DNA of 64,000 nt from Novakomyces olei (GCA_016906335.1 JADEYG010000007.1:124001-188000); one strand, 5' to 3'. Shown: positions 1,256 to 55,706, counted from the stretch's first letter. Numbers and translations are program-made. Notes: a model not told the origin generated them from the sequence alone.

Positions 1256-3253
1256 TCAAAACGAAAAAACAAACGCATTTTCAGCAAGTTCCAAGTTTTG
1301 ACTATTCTCGCGCCATTGCTGCAAGACAGCCAACGGATCTTCAGAGAAAAAGTCCGCCTTGCGCATGCCGCCATTGTCGCCATCCTCCCCTTCATGGTTG
1401 GCCAAAGCACCCTGATCTCCGTCCGCGTCCACGTCCGGCCCAGACTGAGTTCTTATACCATCTTCACCACCTGGTGTCTGATGCAGTCGGATTGAGCTCT
1501 CAAAAAAATGAAGAATAGATCGAGCATTTGGCCAGAACCGTGTGAGGTGCCGGAGGGAGACAAGAGCAGAATCATACCGTCGCAAAGCGGCTATGGCCAA
1601 TACAGGATTAGAAAACCGTGCCTCTGAGCAGAGCTGGATAATAGCTGTAAACAAGCAATTAACCGCCGACAGCCAGAGCAGCTTCATTTCGCCCTTTTCC
1701 GCAATAAGCTGGAAAATGTCTTGGATGCAAGTCGCTGCGGCCAGGCAAATTTCTACATCGCCACCAGATCTAGTATAATTCTCACGGGAGCCTTGTTGCC
1801 TGGCCCTTTGCCTGTGCAGCATAATCAGAAAGGTATTGTATACAAGGTGAAGATTTGCACACCACACGTTTATTGCAGATGTTAGCCGAAGATGTAAATG
1901 ATGCGGTAGACAAAGGGACCAGCTCGCCAACGACTCATCGGAGGCCTTTAAACCGGCTTCCCGCTCATCTGCAGGCACAGGCAAAGAAAACATCAAATTT
2001 AAAGATTTAGAGATAATAATACACAACTCGTTGAAGCTCATGACATATTCTACCAGAGTGTTTGGGCCACAGTCTTCAAAATCTGATGCTTTCAGACTCT
2101 GTACGTCACAGTTTGACAAGCAAATTGCCTGAGAGCGTCCATACTGCATGGAAACGAGCACATCACATTGAAAAAGAAGCCACCAAACTCTTCGCCACAT
2201 CCGTTTGTTACGTGAAATCAACGTACTCTTGTCCGCATCACGATGCATGCCCAGACCCATTGCCGTCCGGCAAGCAATGCCTATCCAAAACCAGGCATTT
2301 GCCGTCACATCTTCCAATCCATCCGTGTACCACGTAAGCAGCAAAGCCGCCTGGACGACAGTGTCGCGGTTACGTTCGAATTGAGCATCGAAAAGTAATT
2401 TTGCACTTTTGAAAAAGGCCGATTTAAATGTGTCCCGCTCCGCAAGCGATAGCGTGACATGCGCCCCTACTAGCAGGACACAGTGAAGGAGTAAAAGCGA
2501 TGGCGGGTTTCTCGGGTTCCGTCCATGGTACTGCGCCATAAAGTGAGCCTCATCAACGACGGGGAATCCCGGGTTCACTAGCGTAAAGTACCCATCAAGG
2601 AGCCTGTCTACAATATCTTTTGATGGCAGCATAAAAGCTCCATTCAAATGGTTGTCTTGTCCATTAAAGGCCGTCTCGCGCTCAATGCGGTTCACTGGAA
2701 AATGAGAGATACCGTCGGCCCTTGAACCAAACTGCTGCTGCACAAGGTAGTTCAAGTTTGAAACGTCAGTACCAATGTAGACCGTGCGCGCATGCTTATC
2801 AATGGGCCGCTGAGCCAGCTCTGGTCGATCAATAAAATCAAAAATATTCTGGAACAGACTATCGTGAGCCGTAAAATTTGCTGTAGTAGCAACCTCAGAC
2901 GCTGGCGTCCATGACACGAGCTCCCCTTCTCCAAGCCGAGATTCTGGCTCGGGCCGAGACTCGTTTCCGCGGCCCGAGCTGTCCACTTGTACATCTCGCG
3001 CGGAAAGCCGTTGCGAACCTCGCTTGCGCTTTAACCGAACCGAGCACCTATCAGCGCGGGCAGTCTCTTTGCAATTCGAACACGGGTACCCAACTTGGTC
3101 GGAATCGCAGCGCACTTTGCGCTCGTGGCATACCGTACAGGCTGCTCTACCTACGCGAAATCATTTAGCTAAAGGATTTACTAACGCCGTCTTACTCGCG
3201 GCCTGAGAGCGGTAGTTGCTCAGCCTCGTAGTGCTCTGCTCCCTCGTGTGCAT
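1256..3253 (-). CDS. Zn2Cys6 transcription factor with fungal-specific TF (middle homology) domain; intron ~3151-3195; start approximate
   Basis: Spliced N-terminus gives ACTVCHERKVRC...PCSNC...C; AMGLGMHRD and RRVWWLLF motifs. Confidence 0.85.
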
Positions 3254-5114: not shown

Positions 5115-6452
5115 ATGGCCGACATTGAAATTAACGCCGAGGTACTTTAATTTTTCCCCATGACGAAATTCCGAGATGTCACATGACACAAATGCTAACA
5201 TAATTGCACTATAGACTCCGAATCCTTTGCCCACTCAACCGCCAACTGGCTCGACACAGTCCTTTGGCTCGGACCAGCAAACATCTCTCCCGCAAAAGTC
5301 TCCACTACGCAGTAATAGTGTGCGTAATAGTGTAGGCAGTTTTAAAGCAGTTGCACCTTTGGACTTTTCACGCGAGAAGAAGGAGACAGCGAAGGGTGCT
5401 GAAGAAGCTGAAATGGCTCTCAGTCAGGTCGAGGACGGTAATGCCGGCTCTTCTACTCTGCCGACTACCACCTCGGAACAGCCTCCGCCCTTGCTTGCTG
5501 AAGAACCCTCTTCCTCCACCGGCGCCGTCCCTCCCTTGGTTCAACAAGAGCCTCAGTACTCGGGAGAGCGTTACAAGACTTTTTGTATGAGGCATTTTGC
5601 TCTCTGCTTTTATACTAACCCGCTTCGTCTAGTCACCGACCTTTTTACTTGGAAGTATCCTATTTCTTCAGGAATAGCTTTCCTCGCTTCGCTTGTGGCA
5701 CTGCTAGGCCTCCATTTTGTGAGCCCACTTCGGCTGCTGTTTTACGGATCATGGGTCGTTTTTGGTGCCAGCTCGTTGATTGAGTTTGCTAGTGCAAAGC
5801 TGTCTGGTGGCAGCCGTGGAATAATCTCGTAAGGATTGCCTCAGCTTGATTTACATGCTCGTTTTTATCTTTATTTTATTTGTATCTTTTTTTATTCGAG
5901 TCTTTTGGCTTTCACTAAATTTACCATTTTCTAACTTGCAGACAATTTAAACCCGCTCAACCATTTCAAGTTTCTCCTTCAATGGTACAGCCTTTTGTGT
6001 CTAGCGTTGTAGAAGCAATTAATTTCCAACTTGACATGTTCCAACATTTGATGTATGCCGAGAATTTGGGTCACACTCTGGGTGTAAGTATTTGCAATCT
6101 CATTGCAGCTTATTTTAATTGGCATTGTCATTAATTTTTGCAGGCCTTTGTTTTGTCCTTTATTGGATACAAGCTTATTCGACACGTCCCTTTCTGGTTC
6201 CTTGCTTTCACCGGGACAGTATCGGCTTTCACGTTGCCTTTGGCGTATAAGCAAAACTCTGAGCTGATTCATTCTAATATGAACAAAGCTCAGAACGTCA
6301 TCTCTGACAAGGCTGGCTCTCTCAAGACAACGGCTGGCGACAAAGCCGGCTATTTTGCCAGCAAAATTTCTGAGAAGACTGGATTTGATCCAAGCCGTTA
6401 CCTTGACTATATCAAGCAAAAGGTGCCGGATTCTTCAAAAAAATCAGAATAG
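5115..6452 (+). CDS. RTN1: Reticulon-like ER-shaping protein; introns ~5142-5214, 5585-5632, 5829-5941, 6085-6143
   Basis: DLFTWKYP..SG..F followed by long hydrophobic hairpins and AFTLPLAY; GT...CTAAC...AG introns. Confidence 0.75.
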
Positions 6453-6634
6453 TCTAATCTTGTGGTATTTTTTTGTCTAGTTTTAAATGTTCTTACGACA
6501 GAATTATTCCAATTTGAATAGAAGAAACAATAATCAAAATGCATTAATTGATTTAATATCGAATTTACCAAAAGATTTGATGTTAAATGTATGAAAATTG
6601 GTGTTTAAAATAGCCAATCTTTTCCATTTCACCT

Positions 6635-9049
6635 TCATGCCCCATAATTTGTAGCTTGCTGTTGTTTCTTGTTCTCATGCTTTTGAGGGTTCTCGATTAA
6701 AGACCGTAAATGCCGTTTAAGAGTTTTCGCTATTGCAAACTCCACAGTGTCGTCTTTCTTAATAGGGTGCTCTTCTGCCGGTACTATAAAATTATCCACA
6801 ATTGATTGTAGATCGCATATCTCCTTCAACATCGCGCATAGCTTGTCATTGGTCAATATCGAAAATAGCAGGTTAAAAAGATGAGCTTCATAATTCGTAC
6901 TGCCTTCTTGTTCACGAAGTTTACGTAGATTTTCCCAGCAAAAAATTTGTTCAACCATAAATGTAAGCATACGCTTCACAGAGTCAAAAGACATGGCCTA
7001 TTCATTAGCAATCATTGATCTAAAACCTTTTGTTAAACATAGAAAAGACAACTAAAAGAATAAATAAAACTTTGGCAACGACGACAACCAAAAATTGAAA
7101 GCCAAAACAAATCGGGTAAAGTATGAAGTCACAATGCCTAAAATGATTCGAATGAAGAAGTTCGATAAAAAAATACGAGCATTTTGAATAAAATGGGATC
7201 ACAAACGGAAATGACATTAGTGATATTAGCAATAATAATAATAAAAGTCGCGAAAGCAAATAGATGAAAAAAAACAAATAGATAAATAACGGTAAACAAG
7301 GGAAAACTACTTTTAGGTCTGAATACATCCCGTCTTTAGCAAGTGTCAAGGTCTGACTTTTAAGATTAAGAAACGGAGACGTGGCAAAAACTTCAGTTAC
7401 AAACGACATTCGGCAATCAGGATCAGCCTCTAAATAAAGCTTTTTAAGGGAATCATAGACGTCGCTACGAGCCGTGGACTCTTCGCATGTAGCGCAAATA
7501 TTACCCAAGTTCCGCAAAACTTGCAGCATATCAAACTCGCCAGCCAATCGTTGTTTCCGCATTACCAATGTCGCGTATAAAGTGCCAGACCCTTCGCCGG
7601 GTATTTCCAGCAAACGGTCCAAATCGATGTCTTTCAGCCATTCCGTGTTCTTGTCTTCAGAATACAAAAGGTTCAAGGCCAATATGTAGTAGCAACCAAA
7701 GGTGGACAAGCTGATTGTTTTGCTGTTTGTTGGATATTCTTCTTCTTCCTCTTCTTCTTCGGAACTGTCGCCTGCTGCCCCATTTTGCTTGGCATCTACA
7801 AACTTCATTAGTATGATTTGAATAAATATGCAACAAGATCAAGCGATAAAAAACCAAAAGCACACTGCGCACCATTCCTCCGGATTTCAGCAATACAGCT
7901 GGCAGAATCAAGGCCCAGAGATTCGCATACAATGTAAAGGCGCTCCTCCGTAGGCTTTTCATCTTCAGTCAAGAGTCTAAATCCTGATCCTCTGGGGTCA
8001 AACGGTATTCTGGACGACATAGTTTCTATCGCAAACGTGGCGAACGCTTGAAAAAGCCGGACACACAACTTATTTTCGTTTTGTTCTGACTCAGAGTCCT
8101 CTTTTGACAATTCATTCTTTTTTTTCTCCTTTACAAAAAAGTCCTCGTCATACGCGAACTCCAAGACTTCGACAACATGTTCGGAGACGTCCTTAAACGT
8201 CGTGATATCTGTGTCAAGAGCCTCAGTGTAAACGCCAAGGACAGTGGTCAGGGTGTCAGACACGAAACGTGAGATTTTCTTCACATTCAGTCGCAATAGC
8301 ACTAAAATTTATCAATATATAAGGGGTAACACGTTGACTACTCACCCTCAGTGAAACCATCAAACAGTGCAGATACTCGCCAAAAAATGAGATCATTAGC
8401 CGTTGGTTTATGCCGTTTACTCTCACTCTTTCCATCATTTTCCTCTTCCACCTGGGCTTTGCTCTCCTCCACTCGTAATGTTGACGCTCCCCATTCTAAA
8501 TTCTTGCCAAGCTCAACAAGCTTCACAAACACTTCTTTGGGGTTTCCCTTGGTGACGATAAGTTGCCACGTGAGCCCCACTCCCTGCTTATCTCTCTCAT
8601 GAAAGCCAAAGAAGGGCAAAACAAGCTGAGCCAGGTCCCATGCCACACCTTCTAAAATAAAGGACTACACACCATGTTGATTAACAATTCGCCTTTGAAA
8701 CCCCAGAAAAGATGAAAAACTGAATAAAGCAATATGAATATAAACCAATGACGGTGCAAAAACGTTACATATTCTTCAACACTTAGCTCGGCAGCAAGAC
8801 CATCAAATAGCTTTCTTTGCTCGGCTACGGTGAGGTTCGTCTTAGCATTGCTCAAAACTTCATCCAGCAAGGTCGACAGCTCGATCAGTCCTGGAGAATT
8901 GCCGTTCTTATTCTAGAAAATGATTCAGTACTTGTCCCAGCCAAAATGAAATTTAAATTAATAAAACTAAAAAACAAAATTTGGATGTTTACTTTTGCCG
9001 TTATATCAAAGCCGGTCTTTATCGCCTCGAGTGATTGCTCCAAGTCCAT
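6635..9049 (-). CDS. Multi-exon YAP-binding/ALF4/glomulin (Ybp1-like) family protein; exon boundaries approximate
   Basis: Exon fragments with AWDL and GNPKEVFVKLVE motifs; chain of minus-strand ORFs separated by intron-like gaps. Confidence 0.55.
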
Positions 9050-18854: not shown

Positions 18855-20625
18855 ATGGACTTCAAAATCAAGCTGCCTGAACCAGCAAAGCTGAATGGTC
18901 ATTCAATGACCCATAGAGAGTTCCAATCATGGAGAAGCTCTGTGGTTAAATGGCTGACATATGCCAAAGCAGGAGGCAGTGTTACCGGGATTTCAGATAT
19001 AGACTTAATTAGCATGTTCCTCGAATCGAACGCTACAATCTATGCTGAAGAACTCAGGGACAATGCTAGTGTAACGACAGATCAGATGCTTGATCATCTG
19101 GAGCGAAGCATTGTACCCAACGACTATTTACCACGCGCTTACAGCAAGTTTGTTACCTTCGCTCAAGGAACAAAAAGCATTAGCCAATATGCCACGCAGC
19201 TTAAATTGAAATCAATGGAACTAGAAATAGTTAACGAAGCCATCTTAATTCAACAATTCATACATGGGCTAAATGAGAGAACAAAGCCTCAAATAATGGG
19301 ATCTTTGAGAAGCGCATTTGGAAATCAGTCGGGAAACAACACAGGAATGACGAAATGGAAATGGCAAAGTGTGGTTGATGTGGCAACAGGCTACGATTTT
19401 ACTGCAACAAGACCATACATAGGGAGCATGAATCCTAAACAAGGCAACCAACAAACTGAAGCAAAGGCAACTACTTCTGAGAAGAAAGAACCAGAGAAGC
19501 CAGCCCTCAGAACAAGATGTACCTTTTGTCGCCGCACTGGGCACACGTACGAGCAGTGCTTTAAACGAAAGAATCAATCAACCATCAGTGCTCTTAAAGA
19601 TGATTCTGAAATAGTTAGCAAAGAAATCAAACTTGATTACAATTGTTCTGCTGTCCAAAACACAAACCAACAATTTCTAGTAAATCTACCTGTGGAAATA
19701 AATGATAAAGAAATCAAATGTCAGGTCCTGATTGATACTGGAAGTGATATTGATGTTATTGACTCAAACTTTTGCAATGTTCACCGACCAACATACAAAG
19801 AAAGTGACCACAAAATTCAAATGGCCTTTCAAGGATCGAAAACTGTGAGCAGATATATGGCCAAAGTCATGTTCAAAGGCAGCGAGTTAAATTGCGCCGT
19901 TGCAAGACTCAGAACTTCTGATCTATTGATTGGCATGGGAACACTGAGTAAGCTTGGGGCAATTGTGAACACTCGCAAACGACATATACAATGGCAGGAA
20001 GATGCAAATGAAAGAAGGTTTGTCAAGCCAGAAGTACTTCCTGTAGTCAGCTCAATAACAATCGATGACAACAAGAGAATTGAAGTCCAACAAGTTACAA
20101 ATGAGGACTTGGTTGACCCAGAAAAAGTACTGCAGATACTTCAAGACAAGTTTGATCAAACTTTGATCAAGGATCCTCCAAGCAAGTTGCCTATAATGAG
20201 ACCTGTGGTTGCTACATATGAGCCAATTGATCCAGAAAAAAGGTATAACATAAAAAAGTGGTACCCAAGCAAAAAGCTTATGTTGCCTCTGAAATTAAAG
20301 ATTGATGAGCTATTAAAAGCAAAGATGATCTCAATCTCTAGCAAAGAACCTAGTGCAATACTGTTTCCTATTCCCAAAGACAAAGAAATGGTTAACAAGC
20401 TAACAGATCCTAAAGAAATAATTAAATATTTGAGATTTGTTAATGATGCTCGACCTCGCAATGCAAACATGAAGCGTTTCTACATTCAAGTACCACGTAT
20501 TGACATAGTTGTACAAGACATTGCACGAGCAAAATACAGAACTAAGATTGATTTGAAGGACGCTTTCTTTCAATCAAGAATACAACCCGGACAAGAACAC
20601 TACACGGCATTCTGGACACCATTTG
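18855..20625 (+). CDS. Element B gag-pol, 5' part: Gag with CCHC knuckle, aspartic protease, start of RT
   Basis: CTFCRRTGHTYEQC, LIDTGS and KIDLKDAFFQ motifs; continues as ...WTPF|GIYQWNVMPQG after C is removed. Confidence 0.93.
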
Positions 20626-21331
20626 TGTAAGGTGGCCCTTAGAGGGGAGCACCGCGGTGTAAACTCGCGTGTCGCTACAGGCGAACACGGACTGTCCTTT
20701 GCGAGACCGCTCGACAAAGGAAGTTCAATCGGTTACCGCGCGAAGCGAGTACCGAGAAACGGGAACGTAGACTTGCGCCCGGCGCAAGAACTAAGGAAAA
20801 GGAAAAGGACGTTGTCCTTGAAAAGGCGACGGCGCTTCTCTAAAGCTTACCTGCTACAAGGCTATGTAGCAACTTTGAGATTATAAGCCCGTGGAGAGAG
20901 TTCTCTCCATGGGCGACTATGTAGACTATCCTATGAGGCTTAGCGGCTCGCTTAGCCACTTCGCGGCCTAAGCCTCATCCCACCACGATCTCAATGCGAT
21001 GGTCCCAGACCATCCGCATTGGGAAAGCGGTGGCGAGCTATGAACTCTATGGATCGATCTATCTAGCTTCGTAGCGATGCGCGATCGCTACTACTACTGT
21101 CATGCGCCGCGACGTGCCTACGTCGCGCGGGCATGGACGTGGACCTGCTTCGCGCGAGCCAGGTCCAACCTGCTCGCGAGCTAGGCCACTTACGCGCTTC
21201 GCGCGAGTAATGTCCAACATTACCTCGCGCGAGCTATTTAGATCTATCTAGCCTGAAGTCATCGCCTTTGGCGCTACAGGACTTCAGGCGTCGTTCGCTG
21301 TCGTGGTTCACGCGAGGCGGGGATCATGACA
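20626..21331 (-). repeat. Element C 3' LTR (706 bp, GC/CpG-rich, many inverted repeats)
   Basis: Identical by eye to 26824-27529. Confidence 0.95.
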
Positions 21332-21450
21332 CTATCCCCCCTTTCTAGGGCGAGGTCTCCGCGCCTATGAAAACCACGTTAGCTACTAGACTGCTATATA
21401 AGTGCGCTTTCGGCAATAAAACTATCTAAGTAATATAAAGTAATTTGCGG

Positions 21451-21951
21451 ATGCAAAACAAGAATTTTCGCTCTGCGTTCCGGATCAACAACAACATGTC
21501 GCTTGCTCATGTCAGAGATGCTATCGTGCCCTGCGAGTATTGCGTGGCAAACTCTTTGCCGTGCCGCTTCGTTCTCGGCACTGCACCGTTTGTGCGTCGC
21601 TGTATGGTCTGCGCGGCACGTCGCACCCGTTGCGAAGGAGGCCGTTTTCTTCATGACAATGAGGAGAACGAGCGCCTTGTTGCCGCGCGTGAAGAACAGC
21701 GTGTGAGAGAGCGCGAGGAGCTGCAGCGTCGCCGCGGAAGACGTCGCGCGCGACAGCGAGCGCAGGAGGAAAGACGTCAGGCACCATTCGAGGTGCATGT
21801 AATTGCCGATGACGGTCCTCCGTCAACAAATTCGATCGTCGGTTCGGTTTCGAGTGCGCTGGCCCAGCGCGATGCGACTATCGCTCGCCTCGAGCGCCGC
21901 AACCGTGCGTTGGAGCGCGAGATTCTTTCGCTCCGTGCCGCTCGTCCGTAA
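21451..21951 (+). CDS. Element C antisense accessory ORF: Zn2Cys6-like cluster plus charged coiled coil (ATG at 21451 or 21496)
   Basis: C-x2-C-x6-C-x12-C-x2-C-x6-C pattern; upstream TATATAA at 21395; downstream AATAAA x2 at ~22078-22091. Confidence 0.75.
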   Translation: MQNKNFRSAFRINNNMSLAHVRDAIVPCEYCVANSLPCRFVLGTAPFVRRCMVCAARRTRCEGGRFLHDNEENERLVAAREEQRVREREELQRRRGRRRARQRAQEERRQAPFEVHVIADDGPPSTNSIVGSVSSALAQRDATIARLERRNRALEREILSLRAARP

Positions 21952-22178
21952 TTGTGTGCGTGACTCAACAGCCATTCCTCCTTGCGTTGTCCCATATTAT
22001 TTGTTCGACAAGTAATTGAATATGTTTTTGTATAATTTTCTCGTAATAATTTAAACAATAATAATCGCGGTATAATCAATAAATCAATAAATCACTTTAA
22101 GAGTTGAGTCTTAGTTTCGCGTGGGTGACGAAAGTTGAAGGTCGTCGCCCGAATAGGGAGCTCGCTTAGCATTCCCAT

Positions 22179-25100
22179 TTAAGAACCAGGTTTGTTCGGG
22201 TGTGCACGGTGGAATTCGTTTACCAAATCCATGCAGTTGTGTAAATGTTTCGCAGGCTCCCACGTGCGGTCGGAGGCGTCGTAGCCTTTCCAATGCACAT
22301 AATATTGAAGTTGCTTGCGTCGGATGCGCGAGTCTAGAACTTGCTCGACTTCCCATTCCGGGTTAGCATCCAATATAACTGGAGGTGGTGGCGCGATCTG
22401 TTCTCGCGCGATCTGCGACACTGCGTTATGTCGCTCTAGCAATGAAGCGTGGAAGACAGGATGTATACGCATTGCCTTCGATAGTTCCAAGCGATATGCA
22501 CGCAAACCAACGCGTGCGATAATCCTAAACGGTCCCAGCTTCTTGGCATCCAGCTTATCGCATGGCCGCGTAGTGCTAATATTTTTTCGCACTAGCCAGA
22601 CTTGATCGCCAATAGCAAAACTTTTGTCGACGCGATGCTCATTTGCAAAGCGCGCCTGGTCGCTGAGAGACTTTTCGATTTCGACTTTCAATAAGCGATG
22701 TAGATTCCGTAGGTATTCGATACGTTCATCCGCGGATGGGCATTGTCGCGAAGATGAAATCGTAAAGCGACATTTCGGGTTGTAGCCGTAAAAAGCGTAA
22801 AACGGTGTTGTCTTTGTAGACGACTGCTCTGAATTGTTGTACGCGAATTGAGCAAAAGGTAACAAATTGACCCAATTGCTTTGCTGATAGTTGCTGTAGA
22901 TCCTCAGATATTGCTCTAAGATCTGGTTAAGCCTCTCTGTTTGGCCGTCGCTCTGTGGGTGGTACGCGGTAGACAACTTCTGCTGTATATCGCATTGCGA
23001 AAGCAAGTGTCGTGTAAACTGCGATACAAATACCGAACCCCTGTCAGAGACTATTTCGTCTGGTAGGCCATAGTTGGCAAATACGCGATGGGCGTAAATC
23101 AAAGCTAGCTCAGTAGCCTTAATAGATTCGCGTATTGGTATAAATATTCCGATTTTCGTAAATCGACAGGTGATTACCCATATGGAGTCGTAGGTTTTTT
23201 GTGTAATCGCATCGCGCGACTCCGGTAATTTCACAATGAAGTCCATTGAGATACTTTCCCAGGGTCTCGCTGGTACTCTCAGTGGGTGTAGTAGTCCATA
23301 CGGTGCATGTCGCGAAGGCTTGTTTCGCGCACAAGTATCGCACGACTCGACGTAGCTAAATATCTCTTTTCGCATGCGTGGCCAATAGTAGTTTCGCATG
23401 ACTAAGTCCAACGTTTTGGCCTGGCCAGGGTGACCCGCGACATGCGAATCATGGCATGTCTGTAGTATAGCTAATCGCAAACGATTGTCGTTTGGGATGT
23501 ATAGCAAACCCGAAAACGTTAGAAGACCCTTTTCGTTTATACTGTAGTTTCGCAGATGTTCCGACACTGGCTGCTTGCCGAGGTCCTCCATGACAACCTT
23601 GCAAGTCTTGTCTTTGCCGTAACATTGTTTAATCTGATCATCAATGCCTGTATCTTCTACGGTCGCGAACAGGAAGTGCGATCTGTCCAATAGTGCCATA
23701 GTTCGCTCTGGTTTCTCCTGTTCCTTATCGCCGACATAATCGCTTCGCCTAGACAAGGCATCCGCTTTGTGATTTAGCTTTCCAGCACGGTATTCAATAA
23801 CGAAATCATAGGAAGCGATCAATTGCGACCATCGCATCTGTCTACGGCTAAGTACTCTTGCTGTAAGAAAGTACATGAGATTGCGGTGATCCGTATAAAT
23901 TGTAGTGCGATGTAACGGACTCTCCAGGTAAACTCGCCATTCGCGAAGACATGCGACAATAGCTAACAGCTCTTTGTCGTAGATATCATAGTTTACTTCC
24001 GCGCTAGTCATTTTTCGCGAGTAGAACGCGATGGGTCTCATTTCGTCGCTGTTGTCTTTCTGCGAGAGAATCCCACCGATCGCGAAGTCCGATGCGTCGG
24101 TTTCCAAATAACTTGGCTTCTGCGGGTCGAAATGCGCAAGGATCGGCGCACCCAGAAAAGCGTTCTTCAGAGTTTGGAAAGAGTCAATGCACTCCTTGGA
24201 GAAATTAAACTGCGCATCCTTCTTCAGTAAGCGGGTGAGAGGGATGGTAATTTTGCTGTAGTTTGCAATAAATCTGCGATAGTAATTTGATAGGCCTAAG
24301 AACGACATAACGTCTTTCGCGTTCTTGGGTTCAGGCCATGTCTCAATAGAATCAACTTTCGCTTTCTCCATAGACACTCCTTTCGTAGAGACAACAAAGC
24401 CTAGGAACTCTGTCGTGTCTGTGTGGAACTCGCATTTCTCTAGTTTCACAAATAAGTTTGCTTTGCGAAGTCGTTTCAGTACTTCGCGAACATGCGTCAC
24501 ATGCTCCTCCTCGGTGTCCGAATAGATCAAGATGTCGTCCAAGTATACAACAGCAAAGCGATCCAGACAATCGCGTAATGTGTCGTTCGCAAGAGCTTGG
24601 AAAGATGCCGGGGCGTTCGTGAGCCCGAAAGGCATAACCTGATATTCGTAATGTCCATAACGCGTACGGAAGGCGGTTTTCCACTCGTCGCCTTCGCGTA
24701 TACGGACAAGATTATACGCGCCACGGAGATCTAATCGCGTAAATATCGTCGACTGACGAATGCGATCCAATAGCTCCGATATGAGCGGCAGCGCATAGCG
24801 ATTTTTGACAGTTACCGCGTTTAGCCCGCGATAATCTACGCACAGTCTCAGCGAACCGTCCTTCTTTTTCACAAAAAGAATTGGAGCCCCCGCGGGCGAT
24901 GAAGACGGCCTAATGAATCCCTTCGCTAGATTGTCTTTAATGTAGTCGCGTAGTGTTTGTAGCTCGCGTTCGGCCAGAGGATATATAGGCCCGAACGGCG
25001 GCTTCGCGCCTTCTGTCAACGGTATTGCGTGATCCCACGCCTGATGCTGTGGTAGAATGTCTGCATTTCTTTTCTCAAAAAGATCGCGAAAGTCTGCATA

Positions 25101-25730
25101 CTCGGGAGGTATAGCGACGTTTTTGTCCTCGCTTTTAGCGTCGGTCGCGTATACGCACAGCAATCCCGAGTCGTTGCCTCGCGATAGCTTAGCAAATTCC
25201 GTCGCACTGATTTGCGATGGTTCGTCTTGTGCCTCGGGCTTCTTGAGGCAGTTTGCTAAGCAATAGGAAGACTCGAATTCGACTTTTGCACGTCTCCATG
25301 CAATCCTTGGCTCATGTTTGTCGAGCCATGGCTTTCCTAAAATAACGTCGTGTCCAGAGAGCGGTATCACGTTAAACATCATAGTCTCGCGATGTTCGCC
25401 TATGGTGACCTCCATGTTTTCAGTCTGGAAGCGAACACCTCCGGTGCGAATCGCTCTTCCATCCACAACTCGTAGTGGCTCAATCTTCGCCTTCTTCGTT
25501 ATATCGATTATGCTTCTCGTAGCAAGGCTCTGGCTGATAAAATTCGACGTCGCGCCTGAGTCGATCAGCGCCTTCGCGTCCAGCTGGCCCTTGCTAGTTC
25601 TCAAATTTGCAGTAACTGTGAGATGTATTCCTCTGTCAGGTTCGGGTACCACTGACATCACCTCCGAAAGCCTCGTGTCATTAACGCCCAGATCAGGCCT
25701 TTCTTTTAGACCTGGGCTCTCGCTTTTCCC
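22179..25730 (-). CDS. Element C pol (PR-RT-RH-IN-chromodomain), in the -1 frame relative to gag
   Basis: LIDSGAT, LRLCVDYR, MPFGL, YLDD, TDASD, HHCC, SDRG and GPF motifs; C-terminal WEVEQVLD...VHWKGY...TWEP chromodomain. Confidence 0.96.
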   Translation of the reverse strand, partial: GKSESPGLKERPDLGVNDTRLSEVMSVVPEPDRGIHLTVTANLRTSKGQLDAKALIDSGATSNFISQSLATRSIIDITKKAKIEPLRVVDGRAIRTGGVRFQTENMEVTIGEHRETMMFNVIPLSGHDVILGKPWLDKHEPRIAWRRAKVEFESSYCLANCLKKPEAQDEPSQISATEFAKLSRGNDSGLLCVYATDAKSEDKNVAIPPEYADFRDLFEKRNADILPQHQAWDHAIPLTEGAKPPFGPIYPLAERELQTLRDYIKDNLAKGFIRPSSSPAGAPILFVKKKDGSLRLCVDYRGLNAVTVKNRYALPLISELLDRIRQSTIFTRLDLRGAYNLVRIREGDEWKTAFRTRYGHYEYQVMPFGLTNAPASFQALANDTLRDCLDRFAVVYLDDILIYSDTEEEHVTHVREVLKRLRKANLFVKLEKCEFHTDTTEFLGFVVSTKGVSMEKAKVDSIETWPEPKNAKDVMSFLGLSNYYRRFIANYSKITIPLTRLLKKDAQFNFSKECIDSFQTLKNAFLGAPILAHFDPQKPSYLETDASDFAIGGILSQKDNSDEMRPIAFYSRKMTSAEVNYDIYDKELLAIVACLREWRVYLESPLHRTTIYTDHRNLMYFLTARVLSRRQMRWSQLIASYDFVIEYRAGKLNHKADALSRRSDYVGDKEQEKPERTMALLDRSHFLFATVEDTGIDDQIKQCYGKDKTCKVVMEDLGKQPVSEHLRNYSINEKGLLTFSGLLYIPNDNRLRLAILQTCHDSHVAGHPGQAKTLDLVMRNYYWPRMRKEIFSYVESCDTCARNKPSRHAPYGLLHPLRVPARPWESISMDFIVKLPESRDAITQKTYDSIWVITCRFTKIGIFIPIRESIKATELALIYAHRVFANYGLPDEIVSDRGSVFVSQFTRHLLSQCDIQQKLSTAYHPQSDGQTERLNQILEQYLRIYSNYQQSNWVNLLPFAQFAYNNSEQSSTKTTPFYAFYGYNPKCRFTISSSRQCPSADERIEYLRNLHRLLKVEIEKSLSDQARFANEHRVDKSFAIGDQVWLVRKNISTTRPCDKLDAKKLGPFRIIARVGLRAYRLELSKAMRIHPVFHASLLERHNAVSQIAREQIAPPPPVILDANPEWEVEQVLDSRIRRKQLQYYVHWKGYDASDRTWEPAKHLHNCMDLVNEFHRAHPNKPGS

Positions 25731-26653
25731 GGTTCCGTGATACTGTCCATAACCACCGAGATGCGTTGCTCATAATTGCGTTGCTTCTGTTTGCAATCAC
25801 GTGCGCGATGACCTTCGCGTCCGCACGTAAAACATCTGTTCTCTTTCTTTCGACGCTGGCGTTCGTCGCTGGTAATGCTCTTCTTTTCGTAACTGGTAGC
25901 ATCTACCTCCATGGGAGTGTATCCTTTGTTCGCGATCGTCGCGCCCCTATAGCCTGAAGCGCCCTTGGCGTTCGTACGGCTAGCGCTTTCGTAGTAACGA
26001 TCCGACAACCTTTCGTCCACGCGTACAGACTTCTCAATTAAGTCTGACAATGTACGCGATTTTTCCAACCGAGATAATTCGTCCTTAATTCGATCTTTCA
26101 ATCCTTGATAATATTCGTAGCGTAAACTGTGATCGCTAAAATCCAAGTGCGAAGTGATCTGCTGAAAACGCGAAGTATACTCAGCAACAGATCCTCGCTG
26201 TTTGAGCAATGCTAGCTCCCGCTCAGCCTGACTAATGCGGTCGACGCTCCCAAATGTCGTGGAGAGCTCGTCGCAAAACAGGGCAAAGTCACTGGTAATT
26301 AGGCTTTCATCGTGGTCGCGCAAGTGGGGTTCAAACCACGCAAAAGCGGCACCGCGCAGATAAGATACCGCAAACAGGACCTTCGCTTCGTCGTTGCGAA
26401 ACTCATGTGGCTTGAGTCTCACGTATAAGCGAACCTGTGCAAGGAAAGTATCCACCGATCTGCGATCACCTCTGAATGTATCCGGCTTCGAAATGCTTGG
26501 CCCTTCGCTGACTCCTGATCGTCGAGATCCCCGGGATCCCATTTCCTGGCGAAGGCCTTCAATAACCGATTTGTCCTTAACGCGCTCCTCTTGGAGCGAC
26601 GCGATCTGCGCCTGCAGCGTCTGCAGAAACGCGTTCAAGTCCTCTTGACTCAT
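25706..26653 (-). CDS. Element C gag (retrotransposon Gag with CCHC zinc knuckle)
   Basis: PDTFRGDR, SYLRGAAFAW, LKQRGSV.EY, PMEVD and CFTCGREGHRARDC motifs. Confidence 0.95.
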   Translation of the reverse strand: MSQEDLNAFLQTLQAQIASLQEERVKDKSVIEGLRQEMGSRGSRRSGVSEGPSISKPDTFRGDRRSVDTFLAQVRLYVRLKPHEFRNDEAKVLFAVSYLRGAAFAWFEPHLRDHDESLITSDFALFCDELSTTFGSVDRISQAERELALLKQRGSVAEYTSRFQQITSHLDFSDHSLRYEYYQGLKDRIKDELSRLEKSRTLSDLIEKSVRVDERLSDRYYESASRTNAKGASGYRGATIANKGYTPMEVDATSYEKKSITSDERQRRKKENRCFTCGREGHRARDCKQKQRNYEQRISVVMDSITEPGKARAQV

Positions 26654-26807
26654 CGTAATTCAATAATTCGTTTGTGCTGCTAAACCGTAGCAAAGCACCC
26701 TTCGTCGCAACAACTTAGTGCGAAATAAAACTTGTAAATCGAAATCTGTGTACGCCTCCGTGCGTGACACCTTTCAACGCCGTGTAAATCTGTAGCTTAG
26801 ACGAGCT

Positions 26808-26821
26808 CACGGGCTTATAAT
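26808..26821 (-). promoter_or_regulatory. Element C primer-binding site, self-priming type
   Basis: 14-nt perfect inverted repeat of LTR positions 27078-27091; lies 2 nt inside the 5' LTR boundary; no TGG. Confidence 0.75.
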
Positions 26822-26823
26822 AG

Positions 26824-27529
26824 TGTAAGGTGGCCCTTAGAGGGGAGCACCGCGGTGTAAACTCGCGTGTCGCTACAGGCGAACACGGACTGTCCTTTGC
26901 GAGACCGCTCGACAAAGGAAGTTCAATCGGTTACCGCGCGAAGCGAGTACCGAGAAACGGGAACGTAGACTTGCGCCCGGCGCAAGAACTAAGGAAAAGG
27001 AAAAGGACGTTGTCCTTGAAAAGGCGACGGCGCTTCTCTAAAGCTTACCTGCTACAAGGCTATGTAGCAACTTTGAGATTATAAGCCCGTGGAGAGAGTT
27101 CTCTCCATGGGCGACTATGTAGACTATCCTATGAGGCTTAGCGGCTCGCTTAGCCACTTCGCGGCCTAAGCCTCATCCCACCACGATCTCAATGCGATGG
27201 TCCCAGACCATCCGCATTGGGAAAGCGGTGGCGAGCTATGAACTCTATGGATCGATCTATCTAGCTTCGTAGCGATGCGCGATCGCTACTACTACTGTCA
27301 TGCGCCGCGACGTGCCTACGTCGCGCGGGCATGGACGTGGACCTGCTTCGCGCGAGCCAGGTCCAACCTGCTCGCGAGCTAGGCCACTTACGCGCTTCGC
27401 GCGAGTAATGTCCAACATTACCTCGCGCGAGCTATTTAGATCTATCTAGCCTGAAGTCATCGCCTTTGGCGCTACAGGACTTCAGGCGTCGTTCGCTGTC
27501 GTGGTTCACGCGAGGCGGGGATCATGACA
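26824..27529 (-). repeat. Element C 5' LTR
   Basis: Direct repeat of 20626-21331. Confidence 0.95.
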
Positions 27530-27534
27530 ATTTG

Positions 27535-30050
27535 GGATATATCAGTGGAACGTCATGCCTCAAGGAGATCGTAATTCCACTGCTATACAGCAACAACTTA
27601 TGGAGGAGCTCTTCAGACCTTACATTGGAATATGGATGACAGTCTATGTCGATGACATAATAATATACGACGATGATGTCCAAGCACATTTGGACCATTT
27701 GGTGCTAGTTTTTTGTATTATGTCAAAGTGGGAACTATACGCGAGTCCAACCAAAACATTTCCGTTTTGCAAGAACTTTGTTGTGCTGGGACGACAAATC
27801 AGTGATGAAGGAATCAAAATGACTGATAAATCAAAAAACTCCATATTGCGACTGGAACCACCAAAGAATATTAAGCAAGTACAAAGATTAGTTGGAATGC
27901 TGAATTGGGTTTCAACGTTTATACCAAACTTATCCTCTCACATTTCAACATTCACTGAGATGAAGGACTTTTCTTGGGACGAAACAAAACAAAAAGGCTT
28001 TGATAAAATCAAGAAAGCAGTTCAGCACGACATAGTACTTTCACCGTTTGACCCTGAACCCCTGAATAATGGTACAGAAAAGCTATTCATGGGAATAGAT
28101 GCTTCACTAGTTGGTACAGGTGGATGGCTAGGACAAGGACAAGACTGGAGAAAATGCAGAGTAATAGGCTTCACGTCGAAAAAATTAGGGATAGCTGAAT
28201 CACATTATCCTGTACATGAACTTGAATATCTTGCATGCATACGAGCTCTTGATCATTTTGAAATATATGCTCGAGGTTACCAAGTCAATTGTTTGACAGA
28301 CAACCAAGCTCTGAGTCGCCTCCTTTACTCTAAAAATGTTATGCTTTCACGAAGACACCTTAGATGGATGGATTTTTTAAATGAGTTCGATATAAATATT
28401 ATTCATGTTCCCGGAACTGAAAATGTCTTGGCGGATCTACTTTCAAGAACACCCGGAAAAACATCTGATGTAGGTGCAATTTCCGTACAAATTTCGCCCC
28501 AGAATAATTTAAAATTTGAGTTGGCCTACGAAAAGGACAGACATTGGTCCAAAATACTCACTATTTTGAAAAATCCAGACAGTTTCACAGACAACGAAAG
28601 CGTAAAAATCAAATCGCGCTACTACATCCAAGACGGTATAATACATCTCCAATACGATGATCGAATCTGCCTACCAACAGATTTCACCAACATCATAATA
28701 AGAGAATCACATGACACCTACCAAGGAGGGCATGGAGGTATAAAGAAAACAATAGCAGGCGTAGGCCGCAAATACTACTGGCCAGGCATGGCAAAAGAAA
28801 TAAATGAATATGTCAGATCATGTGAAACGTGCGCTAAAAGCAAAATAATACCTCAAAAGCCAATGGGACTATTGCAAGAACTCGATATACCGAGTAATCG
28901 ATGGCAAACAATAGGCATGGACTTTATCACTGGACTACCAGCTTCGGGGACTCGAAAGTTTGATGCTATAATTTGCATAGTTGATCGTCTAACCAAAAGA
29001 GCTCATTTCTGGCCCACGCACACAACTATAACAGCACAAGGAACTGCACAGCTATTTCTGGAAAGATATTTCTGTCTACACGGCTTACCAACTGCAATAA
29101 TAAGTGACAGAGATGTAAGATTTATGTCTGAATTTTGGCAGACACTTACAAAAACTCTTCAAATCAAACTGAAGCCATCATCAAGCTATCACCCACAGTC
29201 CAACGGTCAAACCGAACGCACAAATCGTGTATTGGAAGACTATCTTCGTCTTTTCATTTATGCCAATAAAAAGAACTTCAGCTGGCACACATTATTATCG
29301 TTTGCCGAATTCTTTTACTCTTCAAGCCAACACTCCGCCATATCAATGACACCCTTTGAGGCGGATCTTGGCTACATTCCACGTAGTCTTACTGACTTAT
29401 CAATGCCCGAAACACCGAACAAAGATACTTCCTCTTTTATAAACACTCTGGAGGCCAACAAAATTCTTTGTCAAGATGCTATCAGAACAGCACATGATTT
29501 ATCAAAAATCTATGCGGATAAAAAGCGAATAAATGTTGAATATAATGTTAATGACCTGGCTTATTTAAGCACAGCCAACATACGAGAAATACCGGAGCTA
29601 TTCCACGATGTTCTCACACGAAAATTACAATCAAAATACATTGGTCCATTCAAAATTATTCAAAAAATCAGTCCTGTTTCATATGAATTGGAACTACCAA
29701 CATCAATAAAATATCATCCCGTTGTTCACATTTCTCAATTAAAGAAACATCATCCAATGAACAGTCACAACACCAGAGAACAACCTAAGCCTAAAGCTCT
29801 GCGACGCTACAAAGACAACACAGAATTATATTTGATCCAACAAATCGTTGACCATGGATGGTTCAAAGGGTCTAAAAAATCCAATACACCGAAACAGGGG
29901 TATAAGCTATTATACCGAATCCGCTGGGAAGGCTATGGACCTGAAGACGATACATGGGAACCTAAATCTCACTTGGCTAACTCAACCAACCTGCTGAACA
30001 ACTACAATTCGACACATCTCGAATTAGTGGGGGAGGATGTTAGGCCATAG
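27535..30050 (+). CDS. Element B gag-pol, 3' part: RT-RNase H-integrase-chromodomain; stop codon lies 13 nt inside the 3' LTR
   Basis: YVDD, IDAS, ADLLSR, HHCC, SDRD and GPF motifs; YRIRWEGYGPEDDTWEP chromodomain. Confidence 0.95.
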
Positions 30051-53009: not shown

Positions 53010-55706
53010 CTAGTTCATGCCAAACCCCACGGATGATAACATTTCCTGTGGGAAATAAGTGTTGTTGATGTAGTTCCCAAACTGCTCTTGTGCAATCAGC
53101 TGTAATGACTCAAGCAGAGACTGAAACTCGGGCGAATCTGAGTCCGGAGTCAAGTCTTGGATTTCGCTTTGCGGTGTGCTTGAAGCATTGACCAGCGAAG
53201 GCGTTTTTATATTTGGTGTACCGGCACTAGCATCACTCAAAGAAATCACTGCGTCCCTAGCCCGCTGTGTAAAAAACTCCAATTTCCCTAAAAAGCCCTT
53301 TTGGGCAGCCGACGACTTTTCCCCGTTGAATGTTAGAGTTTTTTCGACTAGGGCCTCAACAATCTTTCTAGCCTCTTCTCTTAGAGTCGTATTTTCCGTT
53401 CCAAACAGCCATAATTTAGCCTTTGGATGGTTAACCGTGACTTTGATCACAAGCGCCCGTGAAAATGCGATTCGAACAAGGATTTTAATGCAAAAAATCA
53501 CAATAGCAAAGACAACTCCACAACTGTGCTTCAGATCGGGATTGTGTACTCCACCATGAAATACATTGGGGTTCATTAAAGCCATGGTCTCGTGTACAGC
53601 GACAAAAGCTGTCTGTAGATATTTCAATATATACTGCGAATGCTCGTCCGGAAAGTCAGGCAGAACCTTTTCCGGATCATCTGCATTGTTGGACATGGCA
53701 AGAGCCCAATCGTAATTAGAATGAAAATCAAGACATGCCGCGGCACCTTTAACTCCCCCGTCTTCTCGCGAAAACGGAGTGTTATAAGAAGCATTTGGCC
53801 CTGAAGATTCGTTTACGGGATAGCTTTGCATAGGCAGTATTTTCGTATAATCATAAATAGCTCCTTCATACACAAGACAACAACATAAATGGTAGAGCGG
53901 TTTGAGCGTAGGGCTGACTTGGTACCCGTTGACATTGAAATTGTTCCATTCTAACAAGGGCAAAGGTTAGATACACAGGTAACAAAAAGGTAGAAAAATT
54001 AAAGGCGAAACGAAAAGAGCAAAAAATTCATTTGACCCACCTTCAAGTTTCAGTTCAAACTTTTTAACTAGATCAGACATGTAAGGGTACCGTCCACGAA
54101 TTTTGCTCATTTGCGCCTCGAACTGCATGTCTTCAACAATACTCAGCCCGATACGAGCAAGTTTGGTATAGCAAACAGTCACGAAATCGACGTAGAGCGA
54201 CGATTGGGAGAGAAGTCGATTACAAGCATTATCCATCATGGGTGACCATTTGAGATGAACTTGCTTCCTCGCGATAATATTAACCCTGCACATTTTAGAA
54301 ACGATCAGAATTAAATGAGTACATAAAAGAAAATAAATAAAAAATAGCAAAATACAAGATAAAAGCAATCATTATCCTTACATCGAATATAGGGAGAATA
54401 TTCCAAGCCAGGCCCGATCTTGGTCAATGGTAGACTGTTGCGCAATCACATGCTTTGGGCCCAAATTCGGAAACACATAGCTCGTTTCATCACAGTCGAG
54501 GTGCAGCGCAATCGCAATACTATGCGCATTCCCAATGAACTCTGTCGCCCTTACGGACCGGGGACCGTGTGGGATTTCATGCCAAAACGTTAAAATAAGA
54601 TAAACTTGTACAAGCTCAATTGAACGCCTAACTTCGATGAAAGAAACCTGAGCCAGTACTTGGATAATATCCTTGTAAAGCTTTGAGGAAAATTGTTCAT
54701 GTGTATTATCAAGCTGCTCTGTCTGGACGTGTGTCTGCGACCCAGCCAGGCAAAAGGCCTCGAGCAAAATAGGCTTAGTCGCCCGCAGCATGTCAAAATC
54801 TTGTTTTTGTGCGGGCACGAATGGCAGCCAAATATTTTGGCCATCAACGTACCACTCAAACAGCCGCCTTGCTACGTACAGAGAAACAACGTCCCGGGCG
54901 ATAAAGTCATGCCGAACTGTCTCCGCCAGTCCTGAACCGTCAGCGTGTCCCTGCCCATTAGCTAGACCGGCGGCAGTAGCGGTCTGTGCCAGCACGCCTA
55001 ATGACGATATCGCAGATGGCCCGGAGACTACCGGGTTCGCTGATACAGGAGGTAGTACAGGCTTCATTGTAAAGTTGTCCTTTTGCAAGAAAGACGGATT
55101 ATCCCTTTGCCCCAAATGCTCCCTTGCGGCGGCCGGAAAAGGCTTGAACGATGAATTTTGTTTAAAGGACGGCTGGGTGTTTGCAAATGGAAGCTCCTGC
55201 TTCAAAGCTTCTTGCTTTAAAGCCTCTTGCTTCAAAGCCTCTTGCTTCAAAGCCTCTTGAGCACTATCGGCGGCAAACAGCTTGGAGCTCATACTATCAA
55301 TCTTGCTACTCATAGCCAACAGCGACCGTTCAAGCATGGCAATTCTATCGTCACTGTTAGAATTCACTGACGGTCTTGATGCACTGTCGCTGTCGCTTCC
55401 ACGAGCCCCGCCACTCTCGTTCTCGCGTCTCGTGCGCTTTGGAGCCCTTTCACGGAAAACACACTCGATGCCTTTGTTGGCACATCGCCGACACGGAGCC
55501 TCTTCGTTGTCGACACATCGGACCTTCATCATTCGACACGCGACGCATGCATTCATACGTGATCGTACATTCCCAGAGGCATTCGCTGGCGGAGTCGATG
55601 TCTGATCCGCTTTATAATCTTCGCCCTTGTACTCATCGCTCTTGGTCTTGTGGGCTTCTGTCGCGCCAGTCTGAGAAACAGCACTGTGCGCGTTTTGCTG
55701 AAACAT
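53010..55706 (-). CDS. Zn2Cys6 transcription factor, three exons, with an internal (QEALK)4 repeat
   Basis: ACVACRMMKVRC...PCRRCANKGIEC; middle homology region. Confidence 0.85.

Follow-up and report, generated by a model that had tools for sequence, protein, structure and literature searches.

We analyzed a 64,000-nucleotide (nt) stretch of DNA from Novakomyces olei (GCA_016906335.1 JADEYG010000007.1:124001-188000; hereafter the window) and found that element C, a complete and intact Ty3/gypsy chromovirus lying on the minus strand at 20626-27529, carries an additional open reading frame (ORF) on the strand opposite to its gag and pol genes. The ORF is located at 21451-21951 on the plus strand, encodes 166 amino acids (aa) from its ATG, with the stop codon included in the interval, and combines a six-cysteine, Zn2Cys6-like cluster with a putative leucine zipper. 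We give a probability of roughly 55% to the reading that it serves the element as an accessory gene that is still intact, that it belongs, as a divergent representative, to a family of antisense genes found in one lineage of fungal chromoviruses (~ 150–240 aa), and that it acts in the manner proposed below. Taken separately, its homology is held with more confidence: profile comparisons argue that the ORF is likely to be a deep, divergent member of this family, a true accessory gene of shared ancestry.

Extra antisense ORFs between pol and the 3' long terminal repeat (LTR) have been catalogued for more than a decade, in plants and once in fungi (brtn), without a function. Here, an antisense extra gene has a recognizable architecture of zinc cluster and coiled coil, with an acidic tail in most members; it is conserved across a clade and under selection at the level of the protein. 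The function of antisense extra ORFs thereby becomes testable, through zinc binding, binding of LTR DNA and LTR-driven transcription.

The ORF is housed in the 847-bp spacer between pol (22179-25658) and the 3' LTR (20626-21331) and overlaps neither, as the initial annotation of this DNA had stated. The coordinates which that annotation gave for the ORF features, for TATATAA at 21395 and for the AATAAA motifs at 22078-22091 are all right on the sequence, and the Gal4-type cysteine spacing, E/R-rich helix and leucine-heptad tail that it described can be read in the 166-aa frame. The cluster occupies 21532-21633 (plus strand; C28-C61) and is delimited by the cysteine pattern, by columns invariant among relatives and by the helices of a structural model. 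Its six cysteines (C28, C31, C38, C51, C54 and C61) are the only ones in the protein, and their spacing, C-x2-C-x6-C-x12-C-x2-C-x6-C, falls within the Pfam PF00172 spacing of C-x2-C-x6-C-x5-12-C-x2-C-x6-8-C. The cluster is followed by a long E/R-rich helix (residues 70-110; 21658-21780, plus strand), modelled by AlphaFold with a predicted local distance difference test score (pLDDT) of 87-98, in which an arginine-rich stretch looks like a nuclear localization signal. The last 25 residues form three regular heptads of a putative leucine zipper (21880-21933, plus strand), with I144, N151 and I158 at the a positions and L147, L154 and L161 at the d positions, and lie in a second modelled helix, residues 126-164; this region aligns with an A-x-x-x-R-L motif of the family. 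The start codon is ~ 100 nt from the LTR edge and 105 nt from the polypurine tract. Around the frame, two kinds of sequence motif were noted as motifs only: TATATAA (21395-21401, plus strand), 50 nt upstream of the ATG and 64 nt from the LTR edge, and two copies of AATAAA (22078-22083 and 22086-22091, plus strand), 127-140 nt past the stop codon and 88 nt short of the pol end.

A chance open frame with a chance cysteine pattern would be easiest to imagine in GC-rich DNA, and the core of the spacer is indeed GC-rich (59% within the ORF), with several overlapping frames of more than 60 aa open. Nevertheless, an ATG-initiated ORF of at least 166 codons was found in just 35 of 5000 dinucleotide shuffles of the spacer. 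The six-cysteine pattern occurs three times in the six frames of the window and in none of 300 block-shuffled windows; the other two matches are ordinary host transcription-factor genes. Together with a family score far above that of shuffled sequences and an hhalign match, both described in the next section, these results make the probability of a chance frame next to negligible.

Related antisense genes in other chromoviruses

To find relatives of element C, we queried metagenomes with the C-terminal 333 residues of pol and recovered 80 loci (36-53% identity). The strict Zn2Cys6 pattern gave 28 matches in 27 of these loci, all on the strand opposite to pol and just downstream of it, and no match on the pol strand in 426 kb of metagenome loci. 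A relaxed pattern yielded 29 ORFs in 28 loci, ranging from 95 to 243 aa and mostly between 152 and 219 aa. In 27 of these 29 the cluster starts at residue 25-42, the exceptions being L048 (residue 54) and L056 (residue 70). In 23 of the 29, the low coordinate of the ORF falls within the pol match, 16-115 nt from its end; for the second copy in L033, which is at a contig end, this cannot be judged. A family profile searched in six frames revealed a homologous ORF in 32 of the 80 loci, in each case shortly after pol and on the opposite strand; 30 of these are clear, one (L034) is cut by the contig end and one (L053) is weak. Another 25 loci lack the ORF although their sequence continues for at least 700 nt past pol, and the remaining 23 are too short to tell. 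In several of the loci lacking it, the next gag begins within a few hundred bases of pol, which leaves no room for such a gene.

An alignment of 19 sequences, the ORF of element C and 18 members of the family, shows no variation in the initial methionine or in any of the six cysteines. The initial annotation had named loss of the cysteines or of the frame among relatives as grounds for rejecting its proposal, and both are conserved. Most family members have K, R or H in the first loop of the cluster and a GR-x-C motif in its second half. As read from the sequences, family proteins begin with a short basic N-terminus, continue with the six-cysteine cluster and long helices of coiled-coil type, and mostly end in an acidic serine-rich tail. 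Of 26 family rows, 18 have a loose purine-run pattern, scored with no shuffle control, at a distance of 27-128 nt from the ATG.

Several loci hold variants of this arrangement. In L052 (4637-5384, minus strand) and L056 (972-1716, minus strand) the family ORF is split over two frames, with profile matches to each half, which points to a frameshift or an intron. L053, outside the main clade, contains downstream of pol a 369-codon antisense frame, open from stop to stop (6157-7263, minus strand), with a variant cysteine spacing (x4, x6, x10, x2, x6) and a family-profile score of only 18 bits; this frame could represent another version of the gene or something unrelated. L008, among the closest relatives, also has an antisense open frame downstream of pol (1650-2051, minus strand), with a cysteine/histidine motif that we take to resemble the BED-type finger of hAT transposases, and this frame probably belongs to a neighbouring element.

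To the initial annotation's suggestion of comparing substitution rates across copies we can answer with the family. All pairs of the 28 distinct ORFs were considered, and seven passed the filter of 3-35% nucleotide difference over at least 270 aligned bases; their ratios of nonsynonymous to synonymous substitution (dN/dS) were 0.08-0.43. When seven selected pairs were compared in all six frames, the ratio was lowest in the ORF frame for every pair (0.08-0.40), four frames had ratios of 1.0-3.3, and the mirror frame had 0.17-0.54, its low value being expected since it shares third positions with the ORF frame. The family ORF frame is thus under purifying selection at the protein level. This bears on the idea that the antisense RNA is what matters, by pairing with the genomic RNA at its 3' end and by feeding or blunting RNA silencing, and that the protein is secondary. 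By its layout, any transcript of the ORF would be fully complementary to the genomic RNA of the element, and the possibility has been raised for antisense extra ORFs generally in one review of such genes (PMC7264820). Frame-specific purifying selection shows that the amino-acid sequence is constrained in the family, and the cysteines are invariant; we therefore consider a primary role of the RNA improbable.

Beyond the metagenome loci, the family profile matched 47 database proteins (best E 1e-36) originating from JGI, NCBI and ENA, all of them unnamed or labelled hypothetical and none with a precomputed Pfam domain. Annotation is affected as well: genes of this family lie within DNA that is masked as repeats, and databases list them only in this anonymous form. 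Atlas clusters near one family member contain 67-210 members, with Ascomycota as the commonest phylum. Many of the database members (among P0013-P0048) look degraded, with arginine replaced by cysteine or histidine and with additional W, F and L; such C-to-T type changes fit repeat-induced point mutation of ascomycete transposon copies. The profile had no match at E ≤ 1 among longer proteins (427-2000 aa), which is weak evidence, and a pol query against viral contigs found no relatives.

The membership of the element C ORF was assessed with a family profile built without it. This profile scores the ORF at 20.1 bits, compared with 9.4 bits for the best of 1000 shuffles, and the alignment spans the cluster as well as, in the last helix, an A-x-x-A-R-L motif. 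Across all six frames of the window the ORF is the sole match (E 2.4e-4), and the two host Zn2Cys6 genes are unmatched. Similarly, hhalign aligned the ORF to the family with a probability of 86.8% (E 4e-6), in comparison to 36% and 21% for the host Zn2Cys6 factors. The ORF agrees with the family in position, strand, size, place of the cluster and distance between ATG and polypurine tract, and it retains the near-invariant arginine 11, the start codon and all six cysteines. Its stop codon is 228 nt from pol, so that it does not overlap the pol 3' end, unlike most family ORFs.

These comparisons also address the possibility that element C, alone among its relatives, captured the first exon from a Zn2Cys6 transcription-factor gene of the host; the initial annotation had listed a one-off captured host fragment among the outcomes that would count against it. 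The host encodes such factors, two of them in the window, and gene capture by LTR elements is known (PMC7264820). The ORF nonetheless fits the transposon family better than the host factors do, no host-type protein matched it in single-sequence searches, and 32 of the 80 related loci repeat the antisense position, the size and the distance from the LTR. A capture event confined to this element is highly improbable on these grounds.

To place element C among its relatives, a quick maximum-likelihood tree of the pol C-terminus was built with 62 rows, after 19 of the 80 loci had been dropped (17 with stops in pol and two with short matches). The supported branches are compatible with one origin of the gene. 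The position of element C itself in this tree is among the points weighed in the following section.

Probable zinc-cluster identity and the state of the element C copy

In Gal4-type domains, the loop that joins the second cysteine to the third contacts DNA through basic residues. The initial annotation had called the ORF a Zn2Cys6-like zinc-cluster gene, a claim that agrees with the spacing, that draws weak support from the predicted fold and from weak, consistent profile matches, and that falls short at Pfam Zn_clus (PF00172), where the ORF stays below the cut-off. When searched against PDB, the family profile found the domains of GAL4 (E 0.0075), LEU3, PUT3, HAP1 and LAC9, which make up nine of the 26 sequences at E ≤ 1; the rest are coiled coils. 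Two sugar kinases returned by a single-sequence PDB search (E 0.28 or worse) were rejected. In the AlphaFold model computed with the alignment (pLDDT 82), the cluster has a pLDDT of 70-92 and two short helices, residues 29-33 and 52-57, each of which starts at a CxxC, and long helices follow at residues 70-110 and 126-164. A model made without the alignment was set aside, as its cysteine region was of low confidence and drawn as strands. Foldseek returned 24 matches at E ≤ 10, none at 0.001 or better, and 16 of the 18 matches listed are solved Zn2Cys6 DNA-binding domains (LAC9, Pho7, Gal4, Put3, Leu3, Hap1 and AlcR). Prediction of self-pairing, run without the alignment, gave a score of 0.23 against a mark of 0.32, which counts neither for nor against pairing. 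Profile and fold searches thus point to solved Gal4-type domains in a weak but consistent manner, never significantly. Judging from sequence and modelled fold, the ORF protein probably descends from, and works like, a binuclear zinc cluster, below formal Pfam membership.

In comparison to Gal4-type factors (PF00172), the ORF family has the same six-cysteine spacing and a coiled coil after the cluster, the short helices modelled at the CxxC pairs would be a further likeness, and the acidic tail of most family members is common to both groups. The ORF differs from those factors in scoring below the Pfam threshold, in its very small size, in having no middle domain, in being encoded by a transposon and, for the copy in element C, in the absence of a basic first loop. 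With these reservations, the family plan, as far as sequence and predicted structure reveal it, is that of a miniature Gal4-type regulator. The two host-type Zn2Cys6 genes of the window, at 1259-3160 (minus strand; also with Fungal_trans) and 54381-55706 (minus strand), indicate that the host is a fungus, and they served as positive controls, with Zn_clus scores of 22.5 and 29.1 bits.

A number of observations weigh against the reading of the ORF as an intact, functioning member of a Gal4-like family. The ORF reaches just 10.6 bits against Zn_clus (E 0.65, a partial match), where the cut-off is 21, and only two of 19 family members match Zn_clus at E 0.01 or better. Its 20-bit score against its own family is modest. 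The first loop, VANSLP, lacks basic residues, unlike most relatives; the initial annotation had remarked on this loop, and the feature proves to be peculiar to element C. The middle loop has 12 residues, the upper limit of the pattern, with a four-residue insertion relative to the family, and the acidic tail is absent, the protein ending right after the zipper. In the pol tree, element C is outside a clade of 26 rows that all bear the ORF (100 in the Shimodaira–Hasegawa-like approximate likelihood ratio test, SH-aLRT), in a polytomy with rows that lack the ORF or whose ORF status is unknown. Single-sequence searches with the ORF found no match in a 5.8-billion-protein index, at near lengths, or in metagenome contigs. 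The LTR repeat TCGCGCGAG, described in the next section, is not a classical CGG half-site pair. Finally, a plus-strand transcript was not observed; the two RNA runs carrying the same species label were uninformative, with no reads across 20400-23400, flank and LTR included.

Two further searches were made with the ORF. The only match among 1.84 billion representatives, P0001 (E 2e-4), is a repetitive cysteine-rich protein in which a 29-residue stretch was matched five times; this candidate was rejected as chance summed over repeats. The best score in the ESM Atlas was 0.78, below the usable level.

Several of the points above would suit a different history, in which the family gene is real and the copy in element C is a decaying or re-purposed relic, non-DNA-binding, and open merely because the element is young. 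The non-basic first loop, the four-residue insertion in the middle loop and the missing C-terminal tail all agree with it, as does the score of only 20 bits against the family profile. The LTRs of element C are identical, which leaves little time for decay to show. Moreover, the copies of element C in DNA sequencing runs are nearly identical, with a single difference in the ORF (21506 C>T, alanine 19 to valine), so that selection within the species is not measurable and these copies carry no information on it. Against a relic, the copy has kept its start codon, the six cysteines and the near-invariant arginine 11; its frame runs for 166 codons without interruption, a length that is rare in shuffles (35/5000), and the heptads of the zipper are regular. 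Overall, we regard decay or re-purposing as unlikely, and an intact member of the family remains our preferred interpretation of the element C copy.

Alternatively, the product could be functional without binding DNA, with the zinc cluster and coiled coil forming an adaptor for proteins of the element or the host, for example in nuclear import, particle assembly or chromatin targeting. Three observations would suit an adaptor: Zn2Cys6 domains that bind DNA are only weakly similar in sequence, the first loop of element C is not basic, and fusion to a fungal transcription-factor middle domain was seen in no family member, with none among longer proteins (weak evidence). Most family members, in turn, have basic residues in the first loop and the GR-x-C motif, and the structural matches are almost all DNA-binding domains, so that we assign such a role a low probability.

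Proposed action at the long terminal repeats

The sequence motifs that the initial annotation had offered as candidate targets in the LTR are present: CGG-TTA-CCG, of the form CGG-N3-CCG, at 20730-20738, ACCGCGGT at 20651-20658, and the repeated TCGCGCGAG. The latter has nine matches in the window against 0.41 expected, eight of them within the two LTRs of element C. The near-palindromic motif TCGCGCG(A/G)G, to which the same counts apply and which is specific to this element, occurs four times at 21123-21234, in the putative U3 part of the 3' LTR, with the equivalent copies of the 5' LTR at 27321-27432. One further exact copy of the near-palindromic LTR motif is located inside pol, at 22403-22411.

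A promoter layout may be proposed from the position of the primer-binding site (26808-26821, minus strand). The 14 nt there match exactly, in inverted orientation, a stretch of the LTR at 27078-27091 and 20880-20893 (plus strand); they begin 2 nt beyond the 5' LTR and have three matches in the window, where 0.01 are expected. We take this inverted layout to be the one expected for self-priming of reverse transcription as in Tf1. The match between primer-binding site and LTR would place the start of the sense transcript near 27091/20893, dividing the LTR into a U3 of ~ 438 nt and an R-U5 of ~ 268 nt. With the sense start at this position, the part of the LTR nearest to the ORF would be U3, and the antisense TATA (21395) and the sense start would diverge from a common U3. 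The four near-palindromic copies, situated in the interval from the putative sense start to the antisense TATA, are candidates for a shared upstream element.

Given this layout, we propose that a core promoter lying just within the element would drive rightward transcription of the ORF, with upstream elements supplied by the neighbouring U3 of the 3' LTR. The protein would enter the nucleus, bind two zinc ions and pair through its zipper. It would then bind repeated sites in its own LTR, tuning sense transcription as well as its own. A small, nuclear, zipper-paired protein seated on the U3 repeats could in this way regulate both promoters. The acidic tail of the family is as in activators; the protein of element C, with neither this tail nor a basic first loop, may bind differently, may compete, or may not be DNA-binding.

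We hold the regulatory part of this proposal with less assurance than the homology. That the protein is a sequence-specific, DNA-binding regulator of the LTR is a tentative suggestion, at odds clearly below even. More speculative still, and on present evidence doubtful, is the general form of the idea: that a lineage of fungal chromoviruses encodes its own miniature Gal4-type factor, that the U3 of the 3' LTR is a divergent promoter, and that binding of LTR repeats sets its transcriptional state. If elements do encode such a factor, it would be a retrotransposon-borne analogue of the accessory regulators that complex retroviruses encode, and the antisense extra ORFs of fungi, possibly including brtn, would gain a function. 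In addition, transposon-borne DNA-binding proteins could interfere with Zn2Cys6 regulons of the host.

HBZ is the antisense basic leucine zipper (bZIP) gene of human T-cell leukemia virus type 1 (HTLV-1), an animal retrovirus. The initial annotation compared the ORF with it, and the comparison is sound for layout and fails for sequence relation. Both are antisense genes beside the 3' LTR of a reverse-transcribing element, both encode a small zipper protein, and for both a promoter is expected in LTR sequence; HBZ is a bZIP protein and not a zinc cluster, it has no sequence relation to the ORF, and the likeness is one of layout only. HBZ is also mentioned, via Barbeau and Mesnard 2011, in PMC7264820.

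Among fungal elements, the nearest precedent, one that the initial annotation does not mention, is brtn (Zhao et al. 2011, Virology 417:248), an antisense gene of Boty-like elements in Botrytis and Sclerotinia, described in four papers (PMC8365987, PMC7264820, PMC4227169, PMC5987419). One paper citing brtn reports a Monilinia transcript 63% identical to BRTN, and Figure S1 of PMC8365987 is stated to draw brtn together with other extra ORFs of Botrytis elements. According to these descriptions brtn, like the ORF of element C, is an antisense gene of a fungal Ty3/gypsy element, placed between its pol and 3' LTR, and, like the ORF family, is present across related species. The comparison is by description only, and these descriptions mention no zinc cluster. 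No match named BRTN was among the database proteins matching the family profile. Literature searches, which did not extend to supplementary figures, found no description of a zinc-cluster identity for such antisense genes.

In plants, antisense ORFs between pol and the 3' LTR are described for Grande (gene23), RIRE2, Retand and PvRetro13 in PMC7264820. According to the same source, they resemble the ORF of element C in position, orientation and conservation within families; nuclear localization has been reported for some, and a regulatory role proposed. The elements that carry them are mostly not chromoviruses, and according to the review no clear similarity to other proteins has been described, in contrast to the recognizable domain type found here.

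Structure of element C and its insertion site

Element C is bounded by two LTRs of 706 bp, each starting with TG and ending with CA, the 3' LTR at 20626-21331 and the 5' LTR at 26824-27529 (both minus strand), which are 100% identical. The stretches 20625-21331 and 26823-27529 show ungapped identity across 707 positions, and the limits of the LTRs were set by subtracting the first position, a flank base common to both. This identity of the LTRs indicates a recent insertion. The element is bracketed by a 5-bp target duplication, ATTTG, at 20621-20625 and 27530-27534. Between the LTRs, gag (25706-26653, minus strand) encodes a Ty3-type capsid domain and a CCHC knuckle, and pol (minus strand) encodes protease, reverse transcriptase, RNase H, integrase, SH3 and chromodomain. 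The polypurine tract, read directly from the sequence, adjoins the 3' LTR at 21332-21346 (minus strand; minus-strand reading AGAAAGGGGGGATAG).

Sequencing depth in the DNA run X1 over 20400-23400 was 17.5 in the flank, 41.5-55.1 in the internal region and 112.7 in most of the LTR, which suggests a few full copies of element C plus solo LTRs. Sequence near-identical to 20400-23400 is also present in DNA run X3, which is labelled with a different organism code. Element C interrupts the pol of another Ty3/gypsy element, whose two halves flank it at 18855-20630 and 27555-30050 (both plus strand), and the insertion is therefore nested.

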